NCBI GenBank assembly: GCA_963806535.1
Contig: CAWDYC010000007.1
Location: forward strand, 192,001-256,000
DNA length: 64,000 nt
Origin: Candidatus Bathyarchaeota archaeon
GTDB lineage: Archaea > Thermoproteota > Bathyarchaeia > Bathyarchaeales > Bathycorpusculaceae
Direction of reading: 5' to 3'
Shown: piece by piece, positions 1-22,452 of the stretch
Numbering within the stretch: position 1 is the stretch's first letter
How the letters are laid out: each line of letters opens with the position of its first letter
Notes under the pieces: model-generated
What the model saw: the letters and a program-made list of their open reading frames with translations, nothing else
What the model was told of the DNA's origin: nothing
Database searches by the model: none
Made by a program: the position numbers and the translations under genes

Positions 1-678
1 TTGGTTGTTGGACCGATCTTGGGAAAATGCGTTTCTGGCTTAGAGCCTGCAGAGCACACATCAAATGGCGTAACAACACCCTCGACATTGTGAATTGCGG
101 CTAAGGCTTTTTCTCCTGCCAAGTTTCAGAGCTTGTTTGTTTCTGCACATAACCCAGAAGTTGCCGCCCATAACGCCCTCGACCATAACCAAGATAACGC
201 TCAATAATGAAATCTGGAACCATCAAGGGAACAACGATGACTTCTCGTTCATGACGTGTTTCAATCCATTCATAACCATCGCCACAGTGACCAACAGTCT
301 CCATCATATCTAATTTGCCTTCAGCATTTGGCAACGCATCGTAAACAGCGGTGAAAGGCTTAACCAAGAATGTCTTGGCGGATGCGGTAGGAAAGTTCAG
401 TTTCAAACTTTTTTAGCGATTGCTCGAAGGTTTTTTTCGGGTTTATTTCTCCCCAGAACTGCAGTATTGCACCTGACGTTTGTCAATCGTTTCCTGCTGG
501 AAACAGATATTTTTCCACTCCGCCTTCGGTTCTGCCGATAACAACAGATGGCGTCGCGGTTGAGTCTTCAGCAGCTTTTCGTAATGTTTCGTCATTTTCT
601 GCCGTAATGATTACTCTGCAGAAGAGCCCAGTGAACGCTTCAGCGAAACGTATCTTCAATTTCTGCTTTTTTTGGCAT
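1..678 (-). CDS. Formylmethanofuran:H4MPT formyltransferase-like protein (divergent Ftr paralog); frameshifted, 3' end outside the window
   Basis: Manual translation across about 5 indels: [26 protein letters not shown]...[18 protein letters not shown]...[17 protein letters not shown]...GHCGDGYEW...GVMGGNFW...[13 protein letters not shown]...GPTTN. Matches Ftr family motifs (IEDTFAEAF, GDGY, GGNF). ATG overlaps the upstream TAA. Confidence 0.85.
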
Positions 679-1762
679 TATCCAAGTCTCCCAATGGCTA
701 CTCCTCGAACTTTTTTTCTAAATTCGCTACTTTCTTTGGCGACTGATTCCATATTTTGAGCTGTTACTATTTGAGCTTTAGGCAAAGCATTAGGATACAC
801 AGCTGAAAGCTGTTTAAGCAAAACAGGATCCACTTCGCTATATTCGAGTGCTGGAAAACCCCAAGACTGCAGAGCGTTGATTGCAACTTCTTTCCCAAAC
901 TTAGAGAACAAATCTGCAATAACTGCAGTTACCAGGTTGCTTTCTGAGAGAACAGCCACTTCTGCATTCTTGACTGCATAGCTGTTACCGTTGAAAGATA
1001 CTGTTAAGCCGCCGTTGTCACGGACCAGTTTGAAGGCTTCAACATCTGTTATGCTGTCGCCTACATACATTACATCTGCTAAATCTGCGCCCAAACGCTT
1101 CACCACATCTCGGATTGCCTCAGCTTTTTGTTCCCCGCCAACCGTCACCACATCAATTAGGAATTTTCCAACAAACATTCTTGGGAATTTCGCTCCAGAA
1201 AATCTCGTCCAAACGCTGAATAACAGCTTGGTCACTGTGCGAAAAATCTTCAATTGCTCGTTGCAGCTTTGGGAATTTCAATTAAATGCATTTGTGAGAT
1301 TTCTTGAGCAATTTTTCTTAGTTGGTCTTTTTCTTGCGGAGTGATAGCGCATTTGTCGAGGCTGACTTTGGTGCAGTACGTGTTTTTGTATGGGAATTCG
1401 ATGGCTTTGCAAAGGGCTTTGATATAGTGTTGGTAACTGGTGCTGACAATGAAAGCTTCAGCTATGGCTTGCACGTGGTGCAGGGTGTTTCTGCTGTTAG
1501 CGATTAAAATAATGTTGTTCTCGGAAAACGCATCCATCTGCCTATCAGTTACACCGTACGCTTTAAAGAAAGGCAAAATAAGCTTCAAAGTGCTTCCTGC
1601 AGAGTAACCGGGTTTTCGCAGAATATCTGCCAGCACATCATCATATTTGCTGATGTTAGCGAAAAGTGCGTCGCCGTTTGGAATAAAATTTGCAGCTAAC
1701 TCAAACGCGTTGTCGTTTTTTGAGATTGGTCCTTCACAGTCAGATATGAAGATGCGCTTCAC
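678..1762 (-). CDS. HAD-superfamily protein, EhaR-like; split by one frameshift near 1255
   Basis: ORFs 1250..1840 and 678..1253 join. Motif I-like FISDCEGPIS at the N-terminus, YVGDSITDVEAF and SFNGN near the C-terminus. GTG at 1762 overlaps the purD TGA. Confidence 0.75.
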
Positions 1763-3174
1763 ACTTTGTGCCTCAAATTCTCCATGTGTTTTACGCTTTT
1801 TGCAATGTGCTGTTTTGAGGCGATGTCTGTTCGGTTCCATAATGCGCCGCCTGTTATTGCTTTGGCGCCTTCTTGGCTGATTTGGCGGGCTTCCTCAATG
1901 CTTTTGCCGATGCCTAAAATTCCTATTGCACGAGATTTTAAGGCGTAGTTTTTGCCGTTTTTTGTTTCCATTGAACCGGGGTAAATTCGGATGTTTTTGC
2001 CGTATTTTTTGGTTAATGCGTAAGCTTTTGAGAGGTCAACTGGCGAGTTAAGTGCTGATTTGTCGACTTGTCTGGGGAACACTTCTGCGTAGCCGCCATA
2101 GTCGGGCGGAACCTTGTAGGTTAAGACTGATGCTGCCTTTTCCAATTCGACAGTTGCCAAATTTCCTTCAATCATTCGGAAGCATAAGTCGACAAAGTCG
2201 CCTTTGATTAGATGCAAGAAGGTTAATTATTTCTGGGTCTCCAGGTCGACTGTTGTTTTCGAGAACTTTGATGCCCTTGCCAGTGTGCATAAATGCTAAG
2301 TAAAGAGGTACACCTCTTAGCGCGGAGGCATCTTTGATTTTTGCGCTCCAACCCTTGAAAATTTTGTTAGCTAACAAAAGCTCCTGTTCACGTTCTGCGG
2401 CGGTCAAGAAAGGTAATTTGTCGTCAGTGTCTTTGTATGAGCCCATTCCGCCTGTGTTTGGACCTTTATCATCGTCGAAAGCGCGTTTGTAGTCACGTGT
2501 ATCGGGCAACGGAATGAAGTGTTTGCCGTCGCAGAAAGCCATGAAACTTGATTCTTCTCCGTCAATCTTTTCCTCAATAATGACTGAGCCATATTGGAAG
2601 TTGGACATGAAATGCTCAAAAAGTTGTTCTCGATTGGCAAAGTGGTCTCCCCAGACGCCAACACCTTTTCCCAGAGCGGGCTTATCGGGCTTAACTACAG
2701 CCTGATTATCTAATTCATCTAGCCAACGGTAAACATCGGCTTTAACGTCTGCAGCCTTTGTAATCGGCTGGGTTAAAAACTTTGAAGCGTGGATTAGCTT
2801 CTGGTGCAATCTCATCAAAAAGCACTCGCTGCTCAACTTTGCTGACTTCTATAGCGTACTGTTGCTTTGGACAAATAACAGGTATACCTGTGCGTTTCTC
2901 AACTTGGTCGCGGACGCCTTCAATTATGGGTTTTTCTGAGCCGACTAAAGCAAAACTGATTTTGTCTCTTGTTTGCCTCTGCGAATTTGCAGATTTCCTC
3001 CACATCCAAGTTCGGGATGACAACGTGTTTGGCAGCTTTTTCCGCGTTGAATGGGTTGCGTTGTTTGTCAGCGATGTAGAGTTCAACTTGATATTTTTTG
3101 CTTTGCAGAAGCGCATCAACCATAGCGACTTCTCTTGCACCATAAGAAACAACCAGTACACCTATTTTTTCCAT
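1759..3174 (-). CDS. purD: Phosphoribosylamine--glycine ligase; frameshifted into 4 ORFs
   Basis: GAREVA, GKGVGV, IIEEKIDGEE, DYKRAFDDDKGPNTGGMGSY, ENNSRPGDPE motifs. Confidence 0.92.
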
Positions 3175-3235
3175 TAGAGACACACCCTTATGCAAAGAAA
3201 ATAGAAGGGTTGCTTAATTTGCTTTGCCACCGCAG

Positions 3236-4718
3236 TTACGGCTGAACTTCTTCCGACTCATAGATTCTTGATTTTTCTTGATATCCAGCTAAGAATCTTT
3301 GTTTCATTGCGTCAGCCATTTTTTGTGCGCAAGGCGTTGGATACTCTCCGTTGATGCAGGCTAAGCAAAGTTGGTCTTTTGTTTGACCTGTTGCTTTCAC
3401 TAATGCTTCAATGGATTGGTAGCATACGCCGTCTGCACCTATGATTTTAGCTATTCCTTCTGCATCATGTCTTGAACCGACAAGTTGCCCATACGTTGAC
3501 ATGTCAATTCCGTATAAGCATGGACCGATAATTCGTGGAAAAGTAACAAAGACGTAGACTTTTTTGGCGCCTGCCTTTCGCAATTTATCAATTATTACTT
3601 TGGTTGTGTCTCCTCTAACTATGCTGTCTTCAGTTACGATAACTCGTTTTCCATCAACTTTGGAGCCTAAAATGTTAATTTTCTTATCAATAGTGGAAAA
3701 GCGCTCGACGTTTAGCAGAATGAAAGCTCGCTCTGTAACATAGCGGTGCCGTCTTGACGCCCGTTCCCATCTCAAACCAGACGCTTCATGAACACCCATC
3801 GCTGAGTCGTCTCCTGTTTCAGGCACTGAAAGAATAATGTCACTTTCCTTTACGACTTCAGGATTTTCTTTTACGATGTTTCTTCCGAAATCTTCTCGAA
3901 TTTCATAAACGTATTTGCCGTTGAACCTTGAATCAGGCCTTGCAAAATAAGCATATTCAAAAGCGCAGAAAGCTGGGCGAGGATTTTGTATAATTTGGAT
4001 GCGTTTGAAGCCGTCTTTTGAAACGGTTACGAGTTCGCCTGGTTTTAATTCAAAATCTCTTACAAAACTGTTCATGTCCAAGCCTACAGTTTCAGAGGAA
4101 AAAGCAAAAGTTTTAGCAACTGGGTCATGCCCAGCGCATAACGGTTTTATTCCATGTGGGTCTTTGAAAGCGAAAAAGTCGCCTTCTCCAGTTATGCCTG
4201 TTACGGAGAATGCGCCGTCTAAACTTTCCATAACCTCTTTGGCTGCAGACGGCAGGTCTTTGCCTTGTTTTAGGGCTAAGAGCATTTTGTTACATACAAT
4301 GTCAGAATCGCAGCTGTAAGTAAAATCTGGAAAGTTTTGAGTACATTTCTTTTTTCAGCGGCAGGGTGTTAACGATGTTGCCGTTAAATGAGAGAGCAAG
4401 TTTTATGCCATTTACTTGGGCAACGACTGGTTGGGTGCCCTCTATTATGGAGACATCGTCGCATTTGCCTGAGGTTGTGTACCTTACGTTGCCGATGCCT
4501 ATTGATCCAGGCAGACGGCCAAACCATTCTTTTATGGCGTCATTTTTTACTTTAGGAACTAAATCCAAGTTTTTGTAGGTAAAAAATTGTTTATCACTAT
4601 AAGTAAGAAATCCGTGCGATTGGTGCCCTCGATGGTTTTGAGCACGTAACCCCCAATAAACATATGGAAAGACAGGTTGATTTTCATAGTTTATTGCGCC
4701 AAAGATACCACAGCCCAT
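3236..4718 (-). CDS. purF: Amidophosphoribosyltransferase; one frameshift near 4300
   Basis: N-terminal CGIFG, QNHRG, CAFEYAYFARPDS, PRPP loop EDSIVRGDT, PCLYGIDM, CLACING. Confidence 0.93.
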
Positions 4719-7204: not shown

Positions 7205-8640
7205 TTATGGTTGCCATTTCTCTATGAGATACTTGGGTATCTCACTGCTGTCTCGTGGTCCAACCAGGACTTTCCAGCCGCTGAGTTCTTCGATTTCGCC
7301 GCTGATTCGTGATGCTTTGCCTGGGATGATGATTTTGCGGTGTTTGACTTTGCTTTCGATGCCTGATGCTTTGATTGCGTCTGCGACTCGTTCTGCTGTT
7401 AGTTTGCGTCCTGCGACTCCGCTGTCGATTGCTGAGCCTTCTGTTTCGACTACGATTAGGTATGCGTTGAGTTTGTTGCTTTCTATGTCTGAGGCTACTG
7501 TGTAGTAGGTTAATGCAAAGTTTGTTGTGAACATTACTGGTGAGTTTTCGTCTGGTGTGCCGTACACTTTGAGTCCTGGAGCAACTGCGACTGGTTTGCG
7601 TGGGTCAGTGTAGATGTTTTGGCGTAGCACTGTTGTTGGTAGTAGTGCCCATCCGTCGTCGCCGTGCATTACAAGTACATCTGCGTAGCGGACAACAAGC
7701 ATTGAGGCTATGTATGCTTCTCGCCATTTGATCAGGTCTTCAGCTGTTTCGCCTTTGTCTACCCAAGCAACCATTGGTACACCCAACAAGGGTAAGCCAG
7801 CTAGTTCTTCGCCGCCTTTGGTTGCTGCTCTGCGCAGCATTGTGAAGTTGTTTATTGTGTCTGCTAAGCCTTCGTTTATGAATGTGCCTGGGTCTAAGAA
7901 CTATGTCTTTTACGCCGTAAGTCATCAGGGTTTTTGCAAGGAAACAAGTGCGGTTAGGTCGTTTGGTGCAGATGCAACTAGTGGGCAATCGTACATTATG
8001 GCGAGTTCTGCCATGTCTTTCCAGTTGGTTGCAGTTTGCCGCGTAGAGTAGTGGTCTTGCTTTTGGCGCTGCCATTAAACCTGCTTCAGCTATTGCTGGG
8101 TTCAGGGTGCAAAGTATCATTGGCAGCTTGGTGGTTTCTGAAACTTTTTTGACGGCTGCTTTGAATTTGTCTGCGTCTTCTGATGTGCATCTGACAGCTA
8201 TCATGTCCAGTTTTAAGTGTGTTGCCGATGTATTCGAAGCTAAAGTTATCTGTCTTTTGTACTCGCGTGACAACTTCTTGCTCTGACATTTCGTCGGTTA
8301 CGTCGATTGCGATGGCTGTTGGGTTTTTGTATGTGAATTCATGGCGGTACATGACAAGTTTTCCGCCGATTTTCTTTGCTTTGTCGCCAACGCCAACAAT
8401 GACTTCTTTGACTGCTGGCTTTAGCAGTTCTTTGAGTTTAGCGTATGATTTCTCGTTTTCTTTCTTTAGCAGCGGTTTGCAACTGTCGAGTTCTAATTCG
8501 CGGTTGACAATTTTTGTGGCAAATGCCATGCAGTTGTCTACGCCGCATTCTTTGCAGTTAATTTTTGGAAGCAGCTTGTAAATGTCTATGGGGCTTAATT
8601 CTTTTAATCCAGCTTTCTTTTTCTCGCTCATCTCAACCAT
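7205..8640 (-). CDS. cdhE: ACDS gamma subunit (corrinoid Fe-S protein, large); frameshifted into 3 ORFs
   Basis: IYKLLPKINCKECGVDNCMAFA, VMYRHEF, LRQNIYTDPRKP, TTNFALTYYTV, VGPRDSSEIP. Confidence 0.93.
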
Positions 8641-8645
8641 GCTCC

Positions 8646-9881
8646 TTAAGCTTTTACTGTTACCCAACTTGCGTATTTTGCTGGGTCAGCTTTTTTGCCG
8701 CTTGTCAGGTAGTTTGTGACGTCTTTGAGTGTTTTTACGGCTGCTGGGTGCATCATCATGAATAAGTCAACGCCAGCAAGCAACAGTGTAAGTGCAGTTG
8801 TTACTTCCCAAAGTGGACCTCTTAGCTCGCGTGGTTCCCATTCAGCAGACATTTTTAGCCATGCTTCACGGGCTGCCCAAGCGTTTGTTGTTCCAGAGGA
8901 CATTGGTTGTGCTAGTTCTGAGTCGCCCATTAAGCCGCCTATTCTTGCGCGTTCCATGTTTGTGAATGCGTAGTCTAAGCCGTAGCCTAATGCTGCTGTG
9001 GTTAAGTCCATAACGATGTCTTCTTTGCCAAGGTAATCGTATAGGCGCCTGTTCAGTTCGCGTGCTAGGTTCAGGTCCATTGGTGTGAATGATAATGCTG
9101 CATGACCGTTTTTCTTAACGTATTTTGCGCATCGTTCAACGTCCATGTCGCGTGTAATTGAGCTGATTAGGAAGCGTTCACCTGGGAAAGCGTTACAGAT
9201 TGCTTCGAAAACGTCTGCGTCTTTAACTGGGTCACCGCATCCACCGATTACGAGTGGAACATCAACGGCTTGCAGGATTTTTTCAACGGTTTTTACTGCG
9301 TCTTTTGGTGTAGCATCTTTGAGTAAGGGGTCAATGCTGATTAAGTGGACTGTAACCATGTCTGCGCCGAATTTTTCGACTGCAAGTTTTGCCCATGCTG
9401 CTGGGTCGCCAACGACGTCTTTAACGTGCATCTTGACGGCTTTGCTTAATGGGACTTCCATGTCGAAAACGTCAAGTGTGATTACTGGTTTGTGGGTTAT
9501 TGGTCGCTCAAAAGTGTAGAAAGCAGGAGAAACTTCTCCGCCTATGGTGAGTGATTTTCCGCGTGTGCCGCCGTCTTTTCTTGTTGCCCCAAGTGTTACT
9601 TCAGAGATTTTGTTTGGGTAAGTTTCGATTGGTGGTAGGAAAGGCACTTGTAGCATTGAAAGTGGTTTTCCGCCTGCTACTGCGCCTGGAAGCTTTAGTT
9701 TGGGCATTATTTGCCCAGCCATGCCGGGTTCAAAGATTATTTCTAAGTCTTTGACGTCCATTTGGAAGTCTTCCAGCTCGATTTGCTGGAATTTTGCGAG
9801 CGCTTCAAGTAAGTCGTCGCTTAGTTTTAGTCCTTCAACGTCTTTCTTTTTGTCTGTGTCGTTTTGGGGCGTAGAAATCAC
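8646..9881 (-). CDS. cdhD: ACDS delta subunit (corrinoid Fe-S protein, small)
   Basis: LGAT..DGGTRG, GGCGDPVKD, ALGYGLDY..TNMERAR, NAWAAREAW, RGPLWE, MMMHP. Confidence 0.95.
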   Translation of the reverse strand: MISTPQNDTDKKKDVEGLKLSDDLLEALAKFQQIELEDFQMDVKDLEIIFEPGMAGQIMPKLKLPGAVAGGKPLSMLQVPFLPPIETYPNKISEVTLGATRKDGGTRGKSLTIGGEVSPAFYTFERPITHKPVITLDVFDMEVPLSKAVKMHVKDVVGDPAAWAKLAVEKFGADMVTVHLISIDPLLKDATPKDAVKTVEKILQAVDVPLVIGGCGDPVKDADVFEAICNAFPGERFLISSITRDMDVERCAKYVKKNGHAALSFTPMDLNLARELNRRLYDYLGKEDIVMDLTTAALGYGLDYAFTNMERARIGGLMGDSELAQPMSSGTTNAWAAREAWLKMSAEWEPRELRGPLWEVTTALTLLLAGVDLFMMMHPAAVKTLKDVTNYLTSGKKADPAKYASWVTVKA

Positions 9882-11290
9882 CGTTTGTCTTTGTCGTTTT
9901 TGACTGTTGTTATGATGACTTTGTTAGCGTAGATTTTTGCGTCTTTAAGTATGATTTTGAATCCGCCGGCCATTATTGGCAGTGTTCCTGCTGTTGCAAC
10001 TGGCATCATTGTGCCTGCTGCTTCTTCGTTAACTTGGACTGCTTGTGCTTCTCGTGCTGGTGCTTCTTCTGCTTCCCATCTTGCAACTACTGGGTGATTC
10101 TTAGCTTTCAGGAATGTTTTGAGTTCTTCTACGTTCTTTGCGTCTTCTTCAGTCGCTATTTTGTCAACTAAGTCTTTGGGTATGAAGTCTTTTACTTTTT
10201 CTTTGACTTCTTTAGGTACCCAAACTATGCGGTTCCATCCACCGTCTGCTGCGAAGAATTTCTTGCTTCTCATGTATTCGATGGACATTCCGTGGAATCC
10301 GTCGATTTGTCTTCCGCCTGCTGCTGAGTCTGCGATGGTGCTGAAGGGTAAGCCGTTTACGGCTGCTCCTTTGAAGCTTCTGTTTACTACTGCTAATCCG
10401 TCGACTTCTGGGACATAGAATGTTACTGCTTCGAAGCATCCGCATGAAGTGTGTGGGTGATCAAATGCTGTGTAGAGCCAAACTTGGTTAACTTCGCCCA
10501 TTGTGCGTTTCTTGGCGGCTTCGTTGACGCCTGAGAATTCACCTTTTTCTTCGTTGATCATTTCGCCTCTTGGAATTGCGAAGACTGGACCTTTCGGGTC
10601 GATGCTTGCTGAGGCTTTGCCGTCAAACCAGCTGATTGCACCGCAGTTGCTGTATCTTTGAGGTGTAATGATGCAGACGTGGCTTGGTGCGAATGATTGA
10701 CATAGAGCACAGCCATAGAATGTGTCGACTTCTGAGTCTTTGAGACCTCTGGCTTTTGCGTCGCGTGATTCATATGCTTGCATTGCTTCAGGGGTCATTT
10801 CCTCTAGTTTTGCTGGGTCGGTTATGAAGGTAATTTGTACTTTCTCAATAATTGGCAGTTCACTCTTGAATAAGCGGTAGAGAACTTTGCCGATTGGTTC
10901 AAAACTGTTTAAGCCTTTTTGGAATGATTTTTTGCCTATGCGTATCCAGATGTCATAGCGCTGGTTTAGGTGCATGAAGCCTTCGATGTAGTTTAGGTAG
11001 CCGTGAATACGCCTTTCAATGACACCTTCGAGGCCTTGGTCGAGTTTTGCGCCTGCAGCTTCAACGAGGATGCCGAATGGGTATGCACCGCCTTCTTTTA
11101 GGTCTTTTAGGTCTGGGCCGATGATGGTGATTTTTCCATCTTCGACTTCATTCATGGGTTTTACTTTTGCTAGTTCAAACTTTTGTTTGACTGTGGGTCC
11201 GCCGAGTTCTACTTGCATGTCATTTCTTCGGATACGTTCGCCTTCGAATATTACGCCAACTTCAACAGGTATATCTTTAAACATTGACAT
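9878..11290 (-). CDS. cdhC: ACDS beta subunit (acetyl-CoA synthase)
   Basis: FEGERIR, HLNQRYDIWIR, FYGCALCQSFAPSHVC, PHTSCGCFE. Confidence 0.96.
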   Translation of the reverse strand: MSMFKDIPVEVGVIFEGERIRRNDMQVELGGPTVKQKFELAKVKPMNEVEDGKITIIGPDLKDLKEGGAYPFGILVEAAGAKLDQGLEGVIERRIHGYLNYIEGFMHLNQRYDIWIRIGKKSFQKGLNSFEPIGKVLYRLFKSELPIIEKVQITFITDPAKLEEMTPEAMQAYESRDAKARGLKDSEVDTFYGCALCQSFAPSHVCIITPQRYSNCGAISWFDGKASASIDPKGPVFAIPRGEMINEEKGEFSGVNEAAKKRTMGEVNQVWLYTAFDHPHTSCGCFEAVTFYVPEVDGLAVVNRSFKGAAVNGLPFSTIADSAAGGRQIDGFHGMSIEYMRSKKFFAADGGWNRIVWVPKEVKEKVKDFIPKDLVDKIATEEDAKNVEELKTFLKAKNHPVVARWEAEEAPAREAQAVQVNEEAAGTMMPVATAGTLPIMAGGFKIILKDAKIYANKVIITTVKNDKDKR

Positions 11291-11293
11291 TTT

Positions 11294-11836
11294 TTAATTT
11301 CCTCCATTAAATTTTGAGGTCATTACTTTGAGATTTGCAGCCCATTCTTCAAGGGTTGCATTTGGGAAAGACCAGCTTGCATGAACATGGAACAGGTTGT
11401 CAAGAGTCATGGTTTTGAGGTCTGGTGCAAAATGTTTGAGTCCACAGAGCATCAATGATTCAACATAGTAAGGTAACCCGACAAACATAACTAGGTCTGG
11501 GTGCCCTTTACCGTCTAAGCCTTGCCAGGTTGGATCAACTACTAGGTTGCCAATTTCCATTGCATTCATGAATGCCGCTGGTTGGTATCCGCGTTTTATG
11601 AATTCGCCAACCATGTGGGCTGTTGCTACAACGGGAACTTTGGAAGCGTTAGCGAAGTCAATTAGATATTCGATTAATTGTTTGCCTTCCATGTACCTTT
11701 CAGTCGCGTTGCTTCCCACAATAAGAAGGGGACGTTGGGCTTTTTTGATCATTGCTACTGCTATCTCGGGTTTTTGAATTGGGTTTGCTTTTTTAGTTGA
11801 GGCTATTTCTGCACATTGCCATGGTTCACAGGACAT
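11294..11836 (-). CDS. cdhB: ACDS epsilon subunit
   Basis: MIKKAQRPLLIVG, DPTWQGLDGKG, LKHFAP, HASWSFPN. Lies between cdhA and cdhC. Confidence 0.93.
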   Translation of the reverse strand: MSCEPWQCAEIASTKKANPIQKPEIAVAMIKKAQRPLLIVGSNATERYMEGKQLIEYLIDFANASKVPVVATAHMVGEFIKRGYQPAAFMNAMEIGNLVVDPTWQGLDGKGHPDLVMFVGLPYYVESLMLCGLKHFAPDLKTMTLDNLFHVHASWSFPNATLEEWAANLKVMTSKFNGGN

Positions 11837-14201
11837 AGTTTATCTCTCCATTTACTCCTTCATTTTTCGGACCATTCTTGGAAGCAAGTGTTGGGTCCGG
11901 AATTACTGTTTCTTTCCAGTCGTGTGCTTCAAGTATCTTCGTGAATTCGTCTTTCATGGTCATTGGGACATCAGCCATTGTTCTCACGAATAGATGCAAG
12001 TCATTTGGCATAACTCCTAAGTATCGTTTGCTTAAGTCAACGTAGTGGCTTAGTTTTATGCTGCGTCCTTTCCATGTGTCGTTTGGTCTAATGCAAAGTT
12101 TTGCGATTGCAACCATACATTCCTCTTTGGTTTCAACTGAGTTGAAGAGGTGTTCTGGTGCTGGTCCGACTCTAACTTTGTCGCCTGTACGTGCATCGTA
12201 AACTTCAAAGTCTTCTGGTTTGTCTTCTCTGCCAAGGAGCATACGACGATACTTTACTCCGTGTGGACCGACGAGGACTGGTATCCCTAAGCGCCAGAAT
12301 CCTGCTGCGATTGATGCTGCTTTCTGGGAGTATGCGCCCCAAGCTAAGCCGACTGCACCTAAGCGGTTGTGGATGTAATCTGCGATTTCTTCATAGTTGC
12401 CTCTTAATGGGCGTTTGGCGAAGATGTTTGCTACTTTGATAGCTGCACCTGCAATATGGCTGTTTGAAACACATGAGCCTACGTTTAGGACTCCTCCAGC
12501 TTCGAATCCGCCTGGGAATTCTTCGTAGAGGGTTTTGCCTTCGCTGTTGCGGTAGCTGCCTGCAGACATTGCTGAGCATCCTGACAATGCAACGATGTAC
12601 CGTCTGCTTGCGAATTCTCTGCAAATGTCATAGACGTCTTTGCCGCCTTTTGGATAGTTACTACATCCTACTACTGCTACAATTCCCGGAATTTCTCCAA
12701 GGACGATTGGGCTGCCGACGTTGCGGATTTCGACATCTGAAACTGCGCCTCTGCCCACTCGGCATAGGTTGTCTTCGCAGAGCATGGCTTTTTCGCCTGC
12801 TTTAATGATTAGGCTGTGTATCATGATTTTTTGTGGGCACGCTTCTTCGCATCTTCCGCATCCGATACAGGTCTCATATAGGTCGGTTAATAGGGATAGG
12901 TCACCTTTTGCTGCTGCTTTCATGGCTGCTGGAATAGCGTAGTCTTGCGGACAATTACGTTGACAAGACTTGCATTGAGTGCAGGTCTTTGCAATCTGCT
13001 GAAGTTCTTCTAAACTTGGAAGAACGTTCTTTTTCTTGCGGATTGGAGCGACTTTTTGGGCAACGCGAACTGCGACTTCGCCGACTTTTTCGGCGTCGAG
13101 AATTAGTACGCCTTTGACCTTACCGCTTACGAGGTCAGCAACAATTTCGTCTGCTGGGTCGTTAGTGCGGTTCTTGAAACCCACACAGTTCTTTTCTGAT
13201 GCTGCGATGACTGGTGTGTTAACTTTAGTGGCTTCGTCATAGACATCTGTTCGGATACATTGTTCGTCGAGTACAACTACGTCTGCTAAGCCTGCACGTA
13301 TGAACCTTAACTCCCAGCTTATTGGACCGACTATTTTTGCACGATTATAGTATCGAGTCGTATCAAGAGCAGTACAGCATAAACCCACAATCTCAATTTT
13401 GTCATCGACTTTGTTGTCTTTTGCGTAATCGATGATTCCGACTGAGGGCATAACGTTGTGGCCGATGCACATAATAACGGGTTTGGTTCTGTCAACGCTT
13501 GCGATGCCTAATTTAACGAGTGGCGCTTCCGGGTCTGCTTTTGGAAAGCCTAAGGCGGAGATTTGTGCGATATCACCGACTTCCATGCCTACATGGTCAA
13601 TCATGCCAACGTGAAAAGCTTTTGATTCAAAGTCTAAATTGTTGCTTTCTTGACCGGTGTGTCCTACCGCAAGGATTTGTGTGATTTGTTCTTCGGTATA
13701 AGTTAAAATATCATCTAAGTCGCCGAGTGTTTCAGGCTTTATACCAGTAACAAGACGACTAACCGGGGCTTCAACTTTTACGTTTAATCCGCCGACGTCT
13801 AAGGGGTATCTTCGGCCATATTTTTCAATTAAGGAGTGAAGAAGGTGACGTGAGTGGGCTGTGTGACAGGCTGCTCCAATTGCACAAGCTAACATCACAA
13901 TACGAGATGATTGAGTTGCGATGTCTATACCACATGCACCGCGTTTTCCAGCTGTCAAATCGCATTTTCCAAAAGTGCAAAGACAACAAAGATCACAATC
14001 AGGCATGTAGAAGGGTTTGTACTTGTTGAGAAGCTTCATGTCCCAGTCCCGAAGGGCAGTCATGGAGGGCATTGGTGTTGGACCCATGGGCTCAGTATAG
14101 TTATCGTTAATAACCTTGCCAATGGATAATTCAAAGTTTTTAATTTGACCATTACTGGTCTTCATTTCGTCTATTTTTACATGGACGTTTTTAGTTGTCA
14201 A
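11826..14201 (-). CDS. cdhA: ACDS alpha subunit (CO dehydrogenase); last ~20 codons probably frameshifted
   Basis: CDLCCLCTFGKCDL, GHN, GLCCT, DEQCIR, two CxxCxxC..CP clusters, GCSNYP, GSCVSNSH, WGAYSQKA. An alternative frame near 11880 gives LPRMVRKMKE*. Confidence 0.96.
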   Translation of the reverse strand: MTTKNVHVKIDEMKTSNGQIKNFELSIGKVINDNYTEPMGPTPMPSMTALRDWDMKLLNKYKPFYMPDCDLCCLCTFGKCDLTAGKRGACGIDIATQSSRIVMLACAIGAACHTAHSRHLLHSLIEKYGRRYPLDVGGLNVKVEAPVSRLVTGIKPETLGDLDDILTYTEEQITQILAVGHTGQESNNLDFESKAFHVGMIDHVGMEVGDIAQISALGFPKADPEAPLVKLGIASVDRTKPVIMCIGHNVMPSVGIIDYAKDNKVDDKIEIVGLCCTALDTTRYYNRAKIVGPISWELRFIRAGLADVVVLDEQCIRTDVYDEATKVNTPVIAASEKNCVGFKNRTNDPADEIVADLVSGKVKGVLILDAEKVGEVAVRVAQKVAPIRKKKNVLPSLEELQQIAKTCTQCKSCQRNCPQDYAIPAAMKAAAKGDLSLLTDLYETCIGCGRCEEACPQKIMIHSLIIKAGEKAMLCEDNLCRVGRGAVSDVEIRNVGSPIVLGEIPGIVAVVGCSNYPKGGKDVYDICREFASRRYIVALSGCSAMSAGSYRNSEGKTLYEEFPGGFEAGGVLNVGSCVSNSHIAGAAIKVANIFAKRPLRGNYEEIADYIHNRLGAVGLAWGAYSQKAASIAAGFWRLGIPVLVGPHGVKYRRMLLGREDKPEDFEVYDARTGDKVRVGPAPEHLFNSVETKEECMVAIAKLCIRPNDTWKGRSIKLSHYVDLSKRYLGVMPNDLHLFVRTMADVPMTMKDEFTKILEAHDWKETVIPDPTLASKNGPKNEGVNGEINYVL

Positions 14202-14338
14202 ATTGGAAACCTCTGTAAAGGTTTACGTGTATGCTGCATTACAATCTTTTTAAACCTTTCCAGATTTCTTAGGCAAAAGTCACGGTGTAGATATAGAAAT
14301 GCAATGATTCTTAAAAAATAATGTAAAAAAGGCGTGGA

Positions 14339-15103
14339 CTATAGGTAACCCAAAGTCTTCAGTATTTCCTTCACTGAGAGGTATGCTTTGTTGTCTTTTG
14401 GCAAGTCAATCAAGGATTTCCCGTTAAGTACATAATCATCTAATTGTTCGTCGTCAGCGATTTTTCCTAAGTATTTGAATTTTAAGTCAGTTTCAGCCTG
14501 TTTGCCAAGTTCTGTGGGAAAACGGTAGCCACCGACCAAGTAAAAGTTATCATATTTCATGTCAACTTCTTTAACTATTCTAACAGCACGTTTTACGTGG
14601 TCAAGAGACTTCTTTGAGTGATCAAGAATGTCGAATATGTCACTGACTGTTGAAGTGATACGTCTGTTGAGGTTTTCTAGTCCTGCTGGCGAATCAATGA
14701 GTATGTATTTGTAATTCTTTGTCAACGATTCTAAAGCCCCTTTCAAAGCGGAATTTGGCATACAGTAGCAGCCTTCAACCCATTTTGTTCCGACTGAAAG
14801 GAAATCAAAATTCTTGCTTTCATACAAGCCTTTTTCCCAAATTCTGCTTTCAATTCGCTCCGTTGGGGGAACGCCGACTGTTGTGCCACCCTGCTCAATG
14901 AAGGTGCTTACCAAGAGTTCGGCGATAGTTGATTTTCCAGCCTCTTTCAAGTCTACTCCGATCATTTCAGCAAGATTCTGATCTGGATCAGCATCAACCA
15001 ACAGCAAGGGTGATTGATTGGTTTCGATAAATGCCTTTGCCATTAAGGCTGTGAAACTTGATTTACCTGTTCCACCACGTCCAACTGTTACAAGAGTTTT
15101 CAT
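14339..15103 (-). CDS. cooC: CooC/AcsF-type nickel-insertion ATPase
   Basis: GRGGTGKS, VDADPDQNL, EGCYC, DSPAGLE. Adjacent to cdhA. Confidence 0.88.
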   Translation of the reverse strand: MKTLVTVGRGGTGKSSFTALMAKAFIETNQSPLLLVDADPDQNLAEMIGVDLKEAGKSTIAELLVSTFIEQGGTTVGVPPTERIESRIWEKGLYESKNFDFLSVGTKWVEGCYCMPNSALKGALESLTKNYKYILIDSPAGLENLNRRITSTVSDIFDILDHSKKSLDHVKRAVRIVKEVDMKYDNFYLVGGYRFPTELGKQAETDLKFKYLGKIADDEQLDDYVLNGKSLIDLPKDNKAYLSVKEILKTLGYL

Positions 15104-15122
15104 TTAATAAAACCTCAAAGTC

Positions 15123-15902
15123 TTATGCTGTTTTCTTAATCAAAAGCTCACATATATCATCTATGGTCTTAACTGCTAAGATTTCTTTGTTTTTAAGCGG
15201 GGTTACGCCAAGCATATCAGCCTCGATAACCTTTTGATCGTAAGGTACAAAGGAAAGCAGGGAAAGCCCGTTTTTGTCTGCAAAGCTTTGAATTGCCTCT
15301 TTTTGAGTGTCATTCATCACTCTGTTTCCGATGAGGTAGAGCTGTTTCATTCCAGCCTGTGACGCCAGGTCATGAATATGTTTGGCAATTTCAAGTGATT
15401 TCAAATTGGAATCCGCGACGATGAGTAATGCGTCGACTTGTCTCGCGGTTCCTCTTCCGATGTGTTCTACACCTGCCTCTAAGTCCATAACAACAGCTTC
15501 ATTCCGCTCAACCACAAGGTGCCTTAGCAATGCGCGGATGACCGCGTTTGGGGCACACATGCAGCCTGCCTCCATAGCCTGTACCGTGCCCATAACAATC
15601 AAGTTTACTCCCATCGGAGTGGCTATAGAGTAGTCTCTAACGATGTCATCAACAGTGAAATTCAAATTATAAACACTATTGTAACCTGTGCTTGTTTTAG
15701 ACTCTACTAGAGGCTTATTCTCTGTAATGGGCACTATTTTGCGGGTTTCCTGAGCCGACAACCCCAGAGTCAAACCTAAGTTCGGAGATGAATCAGCGTC
15801 TATCGCGATAGTTTTTAATCCGCGTTCAACAAAACCGCGTGCTAAACCGCCTGCAATCAAGGTTTTGCCAACGCCGCCTTTACCAGAAACTGCTACCTTC
15901 AT
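15123..15902 (-). CDS. cooC: CooC-type nickel-insertion ATPase, second paralog
   Basis: GKGGVGKT, IDADSSPNL, GCMC, DLEAGVEHIGRG. Confidence 0.9.
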   Translation of the reverse strand: MKVAVSGKGGVGKTLIAGGLARGFVERGLKTIAIDADSSPNLGLTLGLSAQETRKIVPITENKPLVESKTSTGYNSVYNLNFTVDDIVRDYSIATPMGVNLIVMGTVQAMEAGCMCAPNAVIRALLRHLVVERNEAVVMDLEAGVEHIGRGTARQVDALLIVADSNLKSLEIAKHIHDLASQAGMKQLYLIGNRVMNDTQKEAIQSFADKNGLSLLSFVPYDQKVIEADMLGVTPLKNKEILAVKTIDDICELLIKKTA

Positions 15903-16066
15903 TCGATTCACGTACTTAAATAAATTTAAGTAAACATTAATTTACGTTTCTTTAAAATTAAAAAATTCAATTCAATTCTATACATAAATTTTTAAGTCTT
16001 TAGCTTTTACTTGATACTGGTCATTACCAAGAGAACTTTTTTCGCCAAAATTAGGAGGTGAATTAT

Positions 16067-16940: not shown

Positions 16941-18263
16941 ATGAAGAAAGCAAACCGTGCCCTAAAACTTCTCATTATTTTTATTTTGTCATTATCAGCA
17001 TTCTCTGGCATGCTATTATCTCAAGTCTCGATAGTATCTGCTAATTCCTCCGACAATTGGTCAATGTTTCACCATGATCTAGTTCATTCAGGCTATTCAA
17101 CCAGTACATCAACAGCAACCTCTTCCACTTTACTTTGGAACTTTACAACCAACAGTGTAGTTTCGGCGTCTCCAGCAGTTGTTGATGGGCGCGTTTACAT
17201 CGGCTCTGATGGCGGAGTCGCCTACTGCCTTGACGCGTCAACTGGCGCCGAAATATGGAACTATACATCCCAAGCCACAACTAATGCTCATTTCGGGGAA
17301 GGTTCAGCAATAGGCTCTTCAATGGCGGTCGCCGAAGGCAAAGTATACTTCGGATGTTACGACCGAAACGTCTACTGTCTCGATGCTTCCACAGGTAACA
17401 AAATTTGGAATTATACAACAGGAAACACCGTTGAATCCTGTCCATCCATCTCTAACGGTTATGTGTACGTTGGTTCTTGGGACGGAAACGTCTATTGTCT
17501 AGATGCTTTAACAGGAAGCAAGATTTGGAACTACACAACTGGAAGCCAAGTAGAATCGTCCCCATCTATTGTAGACGGCAAAGTCTATGTTGGATCAGTC
17601 GACAGTTATGTTTACTGTTTGGACGCGTCTACTGGCGACAAAATCTGGAGTTACAAAACAGGGAATCTTGTGCAATCTACTCCGGCAGTTGTTGATGGGC
17701 GTGTTTACATTGGCTCCGAAGATATGTACGTCTACTGTCTTGATGCTGCGACTGGAGTACAATTATGGAATTTCTCAGCCTCAGGATGGGTTGACTCATC
17801 CCCAGCAGTAGTCAATGGTTATGTTTATGTCGGATGCGCCGTTGTGGACCCGGCTCAAAATGATCTTCCTTCAAACCTTTACTGCCTTAAAGCGTCGACC
17901 GGTGAGAAAGTTTGGAATTATACTATGAAGGGAGGGGCTAGTTTTTCATCTCCTGCAGTTGCAAACGGCTACGTGTACATGGGTGATTGGGCTCACAATG
18001 TATATTGCCTTGACGCATCAACGGGCGCTGAAGTGTGGACCTTTGAGACCCAAAACCATGTGAATTCTTCTCCTGCTATTGCAGATGGCAACGTCTACGT
18101 GGGGTCTTGGGATCATATTGTTTACGCCTTCGGCAACGCTAAAGAGGAAGTTTCGCCGTCAGGTTCGCTGTCTACAGAAAGCATTTACCTCATAGTTGTA
18201 ATAATCGCTGCCTTATGTGTCATCGTCGGAGCCATTCTATTGTTAAGACAAAGAAAACACTGA
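16941..18263 (+). CDS. Secreted, membrane-anchored PQQ-binding-like beta-propeller protein
   Basis: Signal peptide, WSMFHHD, about 8 repeats of SSPAV.DG.VYxGS.D..VYCLDASTG..IW, C-terminal TM helix plus basic tail. Confidence 0.9.
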   Translation: MKKANRALKLLIIFILSLSAFSGMLLSQVSIVSANSSDNWSMFHHDLVHSGYSTSTSTATSSTLLWNFTTNSVVSASPAVVDGRVYIGSDGGVAYCLDASTGAEIWNYTSQATTNAHFGEGSAIGSSMAVAEGKVYFGCYDRNVYCLDASTGNKIWNYTTGNTVESCPSISNGYVYVGSWDGNVYCLDALTGSKIWNYTTGSQVESSPSIVDGKVYVGSVDSYVYCLDASTGDKIWSYKTGNLVQSTPAVVDGRVYIGSEDMYVYCLDAATGVQLWNFSASGWVDSSPAVVNGYVYVGCAVVDPAQNDLPSNLYCLKASTGEKVWNYTMKGGASFSSPAVANGYVYMGDWAHNVYCLDASTGAEVWTFETQNHVNSSPAIADGNVYVGSWDHIVYAFGNAKEEVSPSGSLSTESIYLIVVIIAALCVIVGAILLLRQRKH

Positions 18264-20030: not shown

Positions 20031-22452
20031 TCAGTCAAATGGTTTGCGTATAAGGCGAGTTTTTATCTGATCATTAAATAACAGTCCAAAAACAAAGAAC
20101 CATGCCAATGCTAAAGCCACGTACACAGGCGGTATTGGTGATAATCCAGGTATTCCTGTAATTGAGATAATCGACGAAATTAGTATGTCCGCAATTACTG
20201 CAATTAAAAGGGGTCGGCTCGGTTTTGACTCCCAGAAATTGCCCCTTTCCCGCACAACAAAAATTGTGAATAACCCGCCGAAAAGTAACATGTCAAACGA
20301 GAAAGTATTCAATGCTGCACTATTTGATAGCCCCAAGTAGTTAAGTCCCAAATAAAGCAGACCCAAAGACTCAATGACGCTTGCAACTCCTAGTATTGCT
20401 GCTCCTTTAACAAGAGGCGTAATATTCCATGTTTCAGGTTTTTCCGATGGACGTACATTATCTGTTGAAAGCGAGATAGTGACAAAGTCCACCAAGAAAA
20501 GCAATAGAACCACTTGGAAGGCACCTACAACGAACAATCCGGTTAGTAGAAATGCAACGATAACAAACAAGACTACCTGGAAAGTTTTTACAATCTTATT
20601 AAAAATCCAAGTCAATATCCGCTGATAAATCATTCTGCCAGTAACAACTAAATTTACCACGTTGGACAAGCCTTCTTCAGTTAAAACAACACTGGCTGAA
20701 CCCTTCGCCACATCAGTAGCATTACTTACGGCTATTCCAACCTCAGCCTGCTTTAACGCGGCAGCGTCGTTTATTCCGTCGCCAGTCATTCCAACAACAT
20801 GCTTTTCCGCCTGCAACCCTTTGACAATCCGGTACTTGCCTTCTGGATAAATTTCAGCAAAACCGTCGCTTTTATCAACGACTTCAGCTGCAACAATAGC
20901 ATCCTGGCTTCTAGTGTTCTCAACATCAGCCATGCGCGTAACTTTATCGCCTAAACCCACTTCTTGCGCTATCTGCTTTGCAATAGGCAGCGAATCACCG
21001 GTCAGCATTTTAACCGAAATTCCCAGAGATCGAAGCTTAGCAATCAGTTTTGCAGAATCCTTCCGTGGTTTATCATAAAGCCCCACTAAACCAACTATCT
21101 CCATTGCAGACGCTTCTTTGCCAATTGCCACAGCTATAACCCTGTAGCCTTTATTAGCCAAAACATCGACTTTCTGCTCAATGGTTTCTTTTTCATCTTC
21201 TTTGGTGCAGCAGGCCTGCACTACTGCTGAAACAGCACCTTTTATAACTCTAAATGTTTCACCTTTCTTCTCAACTATCGCTTCCGTTTTGCGCGTGGAA
21301 GGGTCAAAGGGGATAAATTTCTTCTGCTCATATTCGTCTGACTTTAATTTCTTATCTTCAAGGGCACCAAAGAATGCTAGATCAATTGGATCCTGATTCG
21401 CTTTTTGGGAAGCTAAAGCGCCAAATATGAGAGCATCATCTTTCGTGTAACTATTCATCTCTACAATGTCGGCTATTGACAGCTTATTTTCAGTAATAGT
21501 TCCAGTTTTATCAGCGCACAACACATCCATAAGCGCAGCATCTTCAGACGCACTAAGCCTAGTAACTAAAACGCCCTTTCGTGCGAGTTCAAAGGAGCCC
21601 AAAGCCATAGTAATCGTAAACATGGTTGGCAAAGCTACTGGAATTGCAGACACAAGCAAGACCAGCGCCAGGGACACTACATCTAAGAGGTTTACTCCTC
21701 GAACCCAAGAAACAACAGCGGTAATAACAAGCAAGGAAACAACCAAAACAAGAAGCCACTTCATGAGGCTGGAAATAACCTCTTCCATATGCAGCTTAGG
21801 CTTGGCCAACTGAACAAGCTGTGTCGTCTTGCCAAAATACGTGTGAACACCCGTGGCAGTAACAACACCTGTAACCTCACCCTTTCTAACAAGCGACCCA
21901 GAGTAAACAACATCACCAGTCTTTTTGTCAATAGGAAGGGATTCGCCGGTTATGGCTGACTGATCAACTGTTGCTTCAGAATCAACTATCTTAAAATCCG
22001 CAGGAACAAAGTCACCTAATCTAACCCTGATGACATCGCCAGGTACAACTTCAGCAGCATTTAATGTCTGCCACAGTCCATCCCGTAAGACACGCGTCTT
22101 TAGCTGCAGTTTCTGCTTGAGGGCTCCAACAGCTCGTGTAGCTTGCCGTTCTTGGATAAATCCTAAAATGGCGTTTACAAGCAGCAAGGCTGTTATTATG
22201 TAGAGGTCCAAGTATTTGCCTAAAACTAAAGACAGCACAATGGCTACTTCAAGCATCCAGGCCGTTAAGCCCCAGAACTTCTTTGCAAAAGTTATTGCCG
22301 AATTTGCCTGTTTCTCCGCTACTTCATTGCGCCCATATTGTTTTTGCCTTTCTTTGACCCTGATCAGAACTTAAGCCATTTGCAACATCAACATTTAAGG
22401 CATCATCTGCTTGTTTCTTCGATTTATCGGCATCTGATCCTTTTGCGGTCAT
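20031..22452 (-). CDS. P-type IIIA proton-efflux ATPase; frameshift near 22360
   Basis: YGRNEV..KKFWGLTAWMLE, TGES, IPVALP, DKTGT, FDP, KGA, MLTGD, TGDGIND. Confidence 0.9.

Follow-up and report, generated by a model that had tools for sequence, protein, structure and literature searches.

The third step of purine biosynthesis, the formylation of glycinamide ribonucleotide (GAR) to formylglycinamide ribonucleotide (FGAR), is carried out by PurN or PurT, whose formyl donors are 10-formyl-folate or formate together with ATP. In certain archaea the enzyme for this step has been listed as missing since 2011: the available text of Brown 2011 (PMC3261824) names two Archaeoglobi, four Methanobacteriales (Methanothermobacter, Methanosphaera and two Methanobrevibacter, for which the paper's text writes 'Methanomicrobiales') and Methanopyrus kandleri as organisms in which no such enzyme was identified, and in 2022 the available text of Chadwick 2022 (PMC9012536) added ANME-1, a group of anaerobic methanotrophic archaea (ANME), to those reported to lack both PurN and PurT. 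An earlier note on the DNA studied here, made from its letters alone, had stated that several archaea using tetrahydromethanopterin (H4MPT) have no recognizable PurN or PurT, and the first of these reports bears out that statement. Here we analyze a 64,000-nucleotide stretch of a Candidatus Bathyarchaeota genome (the window; positions 192001-256000 of contig C7 of the assembly G000, which has 2.95 Mb in 12 contigs and is 91.75% complete), at the beginning of which purF and purD are followed by a gene of the haloacid dehalogenase (HAD) superfamily and by a paralog of the formylmethanofuran:H4MPT formyltransferase Ftr, termed Ftr2. Using comparative genomics we identify the HAD protein, Ftr2 and a PfkB-family kinase encoded directly thereafter as a module that is the best candidate for the missing archaeal GAR formyltransferase, with a probability that we put at roughly 0.6.

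Several described systems resemble this module. EhaR, EhaS and EhaT, the products of the last three genes of the operon for energy-converting hydrogenase A (eha) of Methanothermobacter, belong to the same three families and are encoded in the same order. According to the available text of Kaster 2011 (PMC3087415), EhaS and EhaT were formerly annotated as Ftr and ribokinase; the literature, so far as its available text extends, takes the trio as a part of the hydrogenase with no function assigned to it. In the loci that we recovered from Methanobacterium, Methanobrevibacter and Methanosphaera, HAD-Ftr2-PfkB comes after genes for hydrogenase subunits and polyferredoxins; in Methanobacterium these are NuoH-, NuoB- and NuoD-like subunits and two polyferredoxins, which is the published eha layout. 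The earlier note had been right to place ehaR/ftr-like genes at the end of this operon. The trio of the window, in contrast, comes after purF and purD rather than after hydrogenase genes. Another Ftr homolog recruited to a multi-protein system is FhcD of methylotrophic bacteria (PDB: 6S6Y; 170 bits on the Ftr2 profile); unlike Ftr2, it keeps the methanofuran (MFR)/H4MPT reaction and binds Fwd-like subunits, of which we found no counterparts among the partners here. The best solved match of the HAD protein is AF1437 (PDB: 1Y8A), a HAD protein with no assigned function whose structure was solved by structural genomics and whose source, Archaeoglobus fulgidus, belongs to a genus that is reported, in the available text, to have Ftr2 and to lack PurN and PurT; a whole-word literature search for AF1437 or 1Y8A returned no functional paper. 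PurN and PurT themselves share with the module the operon slot after purD, a near-complementary distribution and the proposed reaction. However, they are not homologous to Ftr2, whose pieces match only FTR and FTR_C in Pfam and neither the Formyl_trans_N domain of PurN nor the ATP-grasp domain of PurT; moreover, Ftr2 comes with two extra proteins and its proposed donor is formyl-MFR or formyl-H4MPT.

The available text of Chadwick 2022 (PMC9012536) reports Ftr2 from ANME-1, ANME-2a, ANME-2b, Archaeoglobales, M. kandleri and M. marburgensis, and treats the Ftr2 paralogs and the PurN/PurT gap in separate sections that it does not join. We found no publication linking Ftr2, EhaS or AF1437 to GAR formylation or purine synthesis in a literature search whose scope lay within openly available texts, outside subscription journals and supplements; given this scope, the idea may have been published before.

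The slot after purD and the distribution of Ftr2

The nearest matches of Ftr2 in a species-representative collection are 75-86% identical, and 18 of 20 loci taken from relatives within the genus and the order show purF-purD-HAD-Ftr2-PfkB in this sequence, the other two being cut by contig ends. We then examined the best 80 loci found with a narrow Ftr2 alignment, three-quarters of which are from Bathyarchaeia and among which Archaeoglobi, Methanopyri and Methanococci do not appear by name. The 60 Bathyarchaeia-type loci comprise 47 with the complete purF-purD-HAD-Ftr2-PfkB arrangement, five with purD-HAD-Ftr2-PfkB, four with HAD-Ftr2-PfkB (three of them cut by contig ends), three with Ftr2-PfkB and one with Ftr2 alone. 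The 20 loci from other lineages divide into eight with HAD-Ftr2-PfkB, three with Ftr2-PfkB, four with HAD and Ftr2, and five with Ftr2 alone. One further observation concerns a record titled uncultured Methanomicrobia archaeon (L091), which has a lone Bathyarchaeia-like Ftr2 (69% identical) among unrelated genes and may represent a mis-binned contig or a recent transfer.

The genes of the GAR formyltransferases are exchanged at one position of these operons. In the Bathyarchaeia the gene after purD (DISPLACEMENT at one slot) is 1) PurT, as in G045, G143, G099 and G036; 2) PurN, as in G135, G089, G124 and others by their coordinates; or 3) the genes of HAD-Ftr2-PfkB, as in G041, where the order is purC-purF-purD-HAD-Ftr2-PfkB-purE-purM. 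In two genomes (G062 and G056) the order purF-purD-PurN-like-HAD-PfkB-FolD shows that only the formyltransferase has been exchanged while the HAD and kinase genes were kept, and a third (G163) has the same order as far as its contig reaches, ending in the HAD gene. The PurN-like proteins of three scanned genomes score 51-75 bits on TIGR00639, whose cut-off is 150. A divergent PurN-like protein of 278-330 residues is encoded after purD in five genomes in all (G032, G040, G062, G056 and G163; L143-L147), with the HAD gene following in three of the five; its start reads GWFSSGRD, a stretch that we take to occupy the position of the GSN loop of PurN. We also observed that the PurD proteins of the Bathyarchaeia fall into two classes by their scores on TIGR00877: full-length ones accompanied by HAD, as well as those of family f21, reach about 206-270 bits, below the cut-off of 288, while those of most PurN or PurT genomes reach 300-505 bits. 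The PurF proteins encoded beside the low-scoring PurD vary widely, with 29-98% identity to the PurF of the relative G013.

To survey whole genomes we used a broad Ftr2 profile of 36 rows, on which Ftr2 proteins, fragments included, score at least 371 bits and canonical Ftr proteins (Ftr1) at most 285. The limits for PurT were of our own choosing (E<=1e-40, or at least 210 bits in the Halobacteriota), and PF00551 (Formyl_trans_N) stood for PurN. The genome lists were tabulated by hand, so that single slips are possible, although the set sizes match the tallies. In 151 Bathyarchaeia genomes, a single draw that served all searches, 56 have Ftr2, 13 a PurT-like protein (E<=1e-40), 54 a PF00551 match and 122 purD. 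Among those with purD, 51 of the 53 that have Ftr2 are without both PurT and PF00551, while 61 of the 69 that lack Ftr2 have PurT (12) or PF00551 (49). The 29 genomes without purD include three with Ftr2, for which a contig edge or a poor assembly is the likely cause. Alternation is seen even within the single family f17, where two of 14 genomes have Ftr2, eight PurT, one PurN and three none of these.

The same pattern extends to two further samples. The Methanobacteria-like sample (141 genomes of the phylum of G174, read as Methanobacteria; all with both Ftr types, without internal contrast) has Ftr2 in 139 genomes and PF00551 or PurT in none; one of the remaining two holds a 295-bit fragment and the other has a best E-value of 1.5e-72, which we read as the Ftr1 range. 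In the sample of 251 Halobacteriota, Ftr2 is present in 104 genomes, one of them a borderline case with 306 bits, and PF00551 in 127; 48 match TIGR01142 at E<=1e-40, of which the 17 with at least 210 bits were counted as PurT and the others as PurK-like. Among the 104 Halobacteriota with Ftr2, 97 are free of both PurN and PurT; the other seven carry PF00551, and TIGR01142 matches nothing in any of the 104. Among the 147 that lack Ftr2, a PurN or PurT occurs in 133, leaving 14 with neither enzyme. Taken together, Ftr2 co-occurs with PurN or PurT in two of 56 Bathyarchaeia, none of the 141 Methanobacteria-like genomes and seven of 104 Halobacteriota, and the anti-correlation of Ftr2 with purN/purT that the earlier note had proposed to look for thus holds in three phylum- or class-level samples.

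Ftr2, its partners and the purine genes of the host

A profile search against 1.84 billion representative sequences recovered 939 relatives at E<=0.001. We inferred a maximum-likelihood tree with IQ-TREE from 62 full-length rows, comprising 33 Ftr2, 24 canonical Ftr and five sequences of a far group, the Ftr2 labels having been given from motifs and a first quick tree. A branch that has 100/100 support and is present in 200 of 200 bootstrap trees divides Ftr2 from the canonical rows, in agreement with the earlier note's reading of the Ftr as divergent; as the tree is unrooted, Ftr2 may form a grade instead of a clade. The Ftr2 side of the split includes sequences from Methanobacterium, Methanobrevibacter, Methanosphaera, Methanophagales and Alkanophaga, of which the last two form another Ftr2 group with one Methanocellales metagenome-assembled genome (MAG). 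The Ftr2 proteins of Methanobacteria (L115-L137) nest inside those of Bathyarchaeia (L058-L114) in a set with 99/98 support that contains both, which suggests that one of these lineages passed the module to the other; the proteins of Methanobacterium, Methanobrevibacter and Methanosphaera are 53-57% identical to the Bathyarchaeia protein.

Comparison with canonical Ftr (PDB: 1FTR/2FHJ/2FHK, 1M5S and 1M5H) reveals both conserved and distinctive features. The two share the two-lobe fold: a structural model of an Ftr2 ortholog, with a predicted local distance difference test (pLDDT) score of 95.2, has both Ftr lobes, and the Ftr2 profile matches the solved canonical chains over their full length with 244-265 bits. 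A glutamate (E250 as numbered in the G013 ortholog) does not vary across an alignment of 23 sequences, 15 Ftr2 and eight canonical; by alignment position it is equivalent to Glu252 of FhcD, which according to the available text of PMC6926001 stabilizes the tetrahedral oxyanion. Intact Ftr2 proteins exceed the cut-off of the NF002554 subfamily (338-350 bits against 297; 338 for the G013 ortholog) but fall under that of the TIGR03119 equivalog (217-257 bits against 292.6; 241 for the G013 ortholog). The differences from canonical Ftr, beyond the other genomic company that Ftr2 keeps, are a T-G-F-A-T-S loop that is one residue shorter and carries new residues, the replacement of RIGQ by RIRQ, of F-G-D-G by x-C-G-x-G and of x-A-S-T-N by I-G-P-T-T-N, and a two-residue deletion ahead of the S-G-S-K motif. 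R99, C130, C206 and G220-P221, which replace canonical motifs, are invariant in all 36 Ftr2 sequences.

These features bear on the strongest of the alternative explanations, that Ftr2 is a second, anabolic formylmethanofuran:H4MPT formyltransferase feeding C1 units to biosynthesis, while the true GAR formyltransferase of these archaea would be some other enzyme. The complete fold with both lobes, the retention of the key glutamate and the score above the NF002554 cut-off agree with such an isoenzyme, and in the available text of Chadwick 2022 (PMC9012536) Ftr2 figures as a paralog of the catabolic enzyme with lower expression. It nevertheless appears unlikely to us: it leaves unexplained why Ftr2 is absent from nearly all PurN/PurT genomes although most of them keep Ftr1, why Ftr2 is placed between purD and purE/purM and swapped for a PurN-like protein, and why a HAD protein and a kinase accompany it, and the invariant residues that stand in place of canonical motifs are specific to Ftr2.

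The genome G000 itself has, besides Ftr2, the separate canonical ftr that the earlier note had suggested seeking, so that the paralog is not its sole ftr: an intact gene of 338 codons (C10:100475-101488) whose product scores 396 bits on NF002554 and 381 bits on TIGR03119, above both cut-offs, and matches PF01913 with 188 bits (C10:100556-100978) as against 73 and 40 bits for the pieces of the window. Neither purN nor purT, for which that note had likewise proposed a search, is recognizable in this genome: PF00551 has no match at E<=0.1, PurT scores reach no more than 38 bits where the cut-off is 502, and tblastn searches with PurN from a member of the Bathyarchaeia and with PurN-like, PurT and FolD proteins gave only a 46-bit ATP-grasp match. 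The same program recovered purM, purL, purQ, purE and two tandem purP genes in the genome, while purC was not found with the single query used; a search for mcrA in the genome gave none. The purE gene and the two tandem purP-like genes, whose products are 41% and 32% identical to PurP of Bathyarchaeia, lie together at C5:190216-194046, and the pair may correspond to the uncharacterized paired cluster I/II purP of Brown 2011.

In a second alternative, formyl-MFR or formyl-H4MPT would be the source from which the module sets free formate, or formate in an activated form, for ligases that depend on it, whereupon a PurP-like ATP-grasp enzyme would formylate GAR. Parallels to such a supply exist in PurU, which feeds PurT in E. 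coli, and in the Fhc complex of methylotrophs. The two tandem purP genes of G000 would suit this explanation, as would the presence of an Ftr homolog, FhcD, in a formate-generating complex (available text of PMC6926001) and the requirement of PurP for formate, with the cluster II PurP-like proteins being uncharacterized (available text of Brown 2011, PMC3261824). A formate supplier, however, should accompany PurT and not exclude it, whereas Ftr2 is found in none of the 48 Halobacteriota that match TIGR01142 and, among the 13 Bathyarchaeia with a PurT-like protein, only in G031, where the match is weak (175 bits). Moreover, the Methanobacteriales hold a single PurP-like protein according to the same available text of Brown 2011 (PMC3261824), and the gene standing in for Ftr2 in G062 and G056 codes for a PurN-like transferase rather than a hydrolase. 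We accordingly consider this explanation improbable and rank it after the isoenzyme. A PurP paralog as the missing enzyme was set aside together with this alternative.

The HAD protein shows only generic HAD-IB/IIB matches in NCBIfam and Pfam. An alignment of 11 sequences has invariant residues at D34, E36, G37, P38, S133-T134-S135, K238 and G260-D261-S262-I263-T264-D265; in our own assignment of the four catalytic HAD motifs, D34 would be the nucleophile, S133-T134-S135 and K238 the Ser/Thr and Lys motifs and D261/D265 the acidic pair, but motif I reads D-x-E, with E36 and not an aspartate two positions after the nucleophile. A structural model (pLDDT 91.4) has AF1437 as its top solved match (E-value 5e-20, template modeling score 0.90 on the target, 26% identity), followed by phosphoserine phosphatases and, much lower, by cytosolic 5'-nucleotidase. 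The kinase is a member of the PfkB family (PF00294, 180 bits) but not a ribokinase equivalog (TIGR02152, 172 bits against a cut-off of 299.65), and its ribokinase-like scores in NCBIfam stay under every equivalog cut-off.

The HAD protein, Ftr2 and PfkB, that is, the EhaR/S/T trio, behave as one module, which is a new observation here. The HAD profile matches 62 of the 151 Bathyarchaeia, namely all 56 genomes with Ftr2, G023 and the five members of families f14 and f27 in which a PurN-like gene takes the slot of Ftr2 after purD, and has no match in PurT or canonical-PurN genomes of this sample. In the Halobacteriota it matches nine of ten tested Ftr2-positive genomes, often unlinked to Ftr2 (about 0.9-1.5 Mb away in G382 and G350), and none of five Ftr2-negative ones. 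EhaT-type PfkB proteins score 236-321 bits in five of five Ftr2-positive genomes and at most 172 bits in five Ftr2-negative ones. Individual loci show further arrangements: HAD and PfkB are adjacent in G350 (C1:138683-140555) with Ftr2 1.5 Mb off; HAD and Ftr2 lie 0.9 kb apart in G391 (C1:946194-949049), a genome that also has PurN; and in G023 (L155, C45:5000-11543), of the same order as the host, the contig continues for 430 bases past purF-purD-HAD with no Ftr2 start in them, nor was Ftr2 found elsewhere in this 95% complete genome. Whereas the earlier note had named two proteins, HAD and Ftr, the set thus consists of three. The persistence of HAD and kinase where a PurN-like gene replaces Ftr2 suggests that they probably act on the ribosyl acceptor side and not on the formyl donor.

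That HAD and PfkB lack an assigned substrate also leaves room for a third alternative, in which its substrate is a different ribosyl compound or a cofactor intermediate, belonging for instance to nucleoside salvage or to the synthesis of a coenzyme, and the anti-correlation merely mirrors the divide between folate-using and H4MPT-only organisms. It would fit the position of the module away from pur genes outside the Bathyarchaeia and at the end of the eha operon in Methanobacteria. Yet within the one family f17 there are H4MPT-only genomes with Ftr1 and PurT and no module, the pur operons of many Bathyarchaeia families contain the module, and the loss of the operon coincides with that of purD in G028; we hold this explanation to be quite unlikely and place it behind the preceding two. 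All the alternatives explain the exclusion of PurT and the exchange at the slot less well than does a GAR formyltransferase.

Several observations weigh against a GAR formyltransferase and have to be set beside those for it. Given its score above the NF002554 cut-off, Ftr2 may have an ordinary Ftr activity. Outside the Bathyarchaeia, Ftr2 follows Eha hydrogenase genes or stands alone, and purF or purD flank it in none of the 20 loci of other phyla, so that the conserved pur linkage for which the earlier note had proposed to check stands within the Bathyarchaeia (47 of 60 loci) and fails beyond them. Co-transcription with hydrogenase genes is the basis on which the available text of Kaster 2011 (PMC3087415) treats EhaS and EhaT as subunits of Eha, and the available text of Brown 2011 (PMC3261824) states that formyl-H4MPT is not believed to serve as a formyl donor. 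The distribution has its exceptions: Ftr2 co-occurs with a weak PurT-like match (175 bits) in G031 and with a 79-bit PF00551 match in G172, and seven of the 104 Halobacteriota with Ftr2 also have PF00551, the HAD protein being present in all five of these that were tested. Eight purD-positive Bathyarchaeia (three of them only 61-66% complete) and 14 Halobacteriota, together 22 genomes that have purD or Ftr1, show none of the three solutions and must have another solution, be auxotrophic or have the genes missing from their assemblies. The 54 and 127 PF00551 matches of the two samples may include formyltransferases other than PurN, and as the sampled genomes are related their counts are not independent, so that Fisher p-values computed from them are too favorable and are given no weight here; all the Methanobacteria may amount to a single event. 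In families f24 (23 of 27 genomes) and f21 (five of five) weak PurN-like PF00551 matches occur with no HAD protein, and the need for a phosphatase-like and a kinase-like protein lacks an explanation. Finally, the window's own copy of the cluster is frameshifted, and all the support for the candidate function is comparative.

Against these points, the preference for the module as the GAR formyltransferase is founded on its place between purD and later pur genes, the exchange with PurN and PurT there, the complementarity in three lineages, the lack of any other candidate in G000 and the match with the literature; to these we add the separate clade formed by Ftr2 and the co-occurrence of the trio even where it is unlinked. 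The earlier note had proposed the paralog as a step-3 enzyme tied to the one-carbon (C1) pool; comparative genomics speaks for it as a candidate in this role, and the computational outcomes that the note had named as contrary did not appear.

The locus in the window and its frame changes

The genes of the cluster run in series on the minus strand (Table 1), as the earlier note had read them and as our check of the open reading frames (ORFs) confirmed. The overlaps described there are real: in TAATG (680-676) the stop codon of the HAD gene overlaps the ATG of the Ftr2 gene, and in GTGA an in-frame GTG of the HAD gene (1762-1760) overlaps the stop codon TGA of purD (1761-1759). This GTG is the likely start of the HAD gene and gives an N-terminus that resembles that of HAD orthologs from other lineages. 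Both Ftr peptide motifs that had been quoted, one of them RIRQDILVKPF, are found in the translation. The name purF is a reading of the sequence and of its place ahead of purD; purD matches TIGR00877 (C7:194192-194743), its start having been picked by likeness to the G013 ortholog. Pfam recognizes FTR (PF01913) and FTR_C (PF02741) in the Ftr2 pieces and HAD families in the 3' piece of the HAD gene, with no match in its 5' piece. The Ftr2 gene ends at C7:191766, 234 nucleotides outside the window, where its final 78 codons lie, and purM-purL-purQ (C7:186282-190848) converge on the PfkB gene from the opposite strand.

Table 1. Genes of the purF-purD-HAD-Ftr2-PfkB cluster and of the neighboring cdh set; positions are those of the window unless a contig is given
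Feature	Position	Strand	Remarks
purF (glutamine phosphoribosyl pyrophosphate amidotransferase)	4718-3236	minus	from ORFs; two pieces, one frame change near 4340
purD (GAR synthetase), divergent type	~3174-1759	minus	from ORFs; four pieces, ~3 frame changes
EhaR-like HAD-superfamily gene (AF1437 family)	1840 or 1762 to 678	minus	three pieces; frame changes near 1255 and 1178
Ftr2-type (EhaS-type) Ftr paralog	678-1, on past the window start	minus	~226 codons in the window; ~6 frame changes
PfkB-family (EhaT-like) kinase	C7:190855-191766, outside the window		directly after the Ftr2 gene; intact, PF00294 180 bits
cdhE	7205-8667	minus	three frames; name by eye from translation
cdhD	8646-9881	minus	name by eye from translation
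cdhC	9878-11290	minus	name by eye from translation
cdhB	11294-11836	minus	name by eye from translation
cdhA	11826-14201	minus	name by eye from translation

About 12 single-base frame changes, counted from stop-to-stop segments, are distributed over the four genes (about six in Ftr2, two in HAD, three in purD and one in purF), and the analyses above used intact orthologs, the copy of the window being left unmended. The Ftr paralog is free of internal stops over its approximately 302 codons in all 27 gene-bearing relatives among the 30 examined, and because these orthologs are intact we take the breaks as assembly errors. The pieces in the window are 89-99% identical to the intact G013 proteins (96-99% for purF, and 94% for the C-terminal piece of Ftr2 against the 302-residue ortholog). 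Contigs from four other metagenome runs have one base fewer at 129, 179, 1178, 1254-1260, 2213, 2966-2968 and 4340-4342, which coincide with the frameshift sites of the window; this support is indirect, as the contigs (at least 88% likeness) come from related strains rather than the same strain, and four of the six frame changes in Ftr2 had no informative contig cover. Moreover, about 12% of the 5-kb bins of the assembly are equally poor in open frames of at least 250 codons (0.20 here against a mean of 0.53). The frameshifts are thus most likely assembly errors and not gene decay. That the cluster is instead a decaying pseudogene array in an organism scavenging its purines, as some 12 frame changes within 4.9 kb beside the open PfkB and cdhA-D genes might suggest, is very improbable, since every listed change is one extra base missing from the contigs of other runs, in-frame stops are absent, identity to the intact proteins is high, cdhE is split too in an assembly with many equally poor bins, and the nearest named relatives are 'MFD' MAGs with very long contigs, for which we assume a long-read origin. 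A screen of metagenome and RNA runs gave at best 0.12 of the sampled words in one run and at most 0.05 in RNA runs, values from which we draw no conclusion on expression or habitat.

The surroundings of the cluster include, 2.5 kb from purF, a set of CO dehydrogenase/acetyl-CoA synthase genes (7205-15911, minus strand), in which two genes coding for CooC-like ATPases, read by eye from their translations, come after cdhA. Of the two further genes at 16941-18263 (plus strand) and 20031-22256 (minus strand), one codes for a secreted-looking protein with repeated 'VYCLDASTG' units that appears beta-propeller-like by eye and the other for a P-type ATPase-like protein; both are unrelated to the pur cluster.

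A possible reaction and its biological bearing

From these comparisons we infer the reaction, its formyl donor and the roles of the HAD protein and the kinase. Ftr2 would be the formyl-transferring part of the module, with the AF1437/EhaR-type HAD protein and the EhaT-type, ribokinase-like PfkB kinase as its partners, and together they would convert GAR to FGAR in archaea lacking both PurN and PurT. As the formyl source, the C1 pool of methanofuran and H4MPT, through formyl-MFR or N5-formyl-H4MPT, would take the place of formyl-folate or free formate. According to the available text of PMC6926001, formyl transfer from formyl-H4MPT to the furan amine has a free energy of +4.4 kJ/mol; as formyl-MFR is, like FGAR, an N-formylated primary amine, the transfer to GAR would lie near equilibrium, which in turn suggests why an ATP-using kinase and a phosphatase-like protein accompany Ftr2.

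One conceivable scheme, which is a low-confidence guess and to our minds doubtful, is a three-enzyme, ATP-driven cycle of dephosphorylation, formylation and rephosphorylation: the HAD protein would take the 5'-phosphate off GAR, Ftr2 would formylate the resulting glycinamide riboside from formyl-MFR or formyl-H4MPT, and the EhaT-type kinase would phosphorylate the formylated product again with ATP. Such a cycle agrees with the succession of the HAD, Ftr2 and PfkB genes and with the resemblance of the kinase to ribokinases; it would render a near-isoenergetic amide-to-amine formyl transfer irreversible at the cost of one ATP, equal to that of PurT. In methanogens, Eha is said, in work from 2012 attributed to Lie and colleagues, to refill the pathway with reduced ferredoxin for the synthesis of formyl-MFR. 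Eha would thereby replace formyl groups drained into purines, which would explain the position of the trio at the end of the anaplerotic Eha operon.

If the module is indeed a GAR formyltransferase, it would be a third kind of this enzyme, unrelated to PurN and PurT, and would give purine synthesis a direct link to the earliest C1 intermediate of the Wood-Ljungdahl pathway and methanogenesis, with methanofuran/H4MPT-bound C1 units draining into nucleotides. The automatic "Ftr" annotations of these proteins, and metabolic models that count Ftr2 as catabolic, would need to be corrected, and the methanogen-specific enzymes of an essential pathway would become possible targets for inhibitors. It would also close a pathway hole for the methanogens of rumen and gut, the methane- and alkane-oxidizing archaea, the sulfate-reducing Archaeoglobi and the Bathyarchaeia that abound in sediments.

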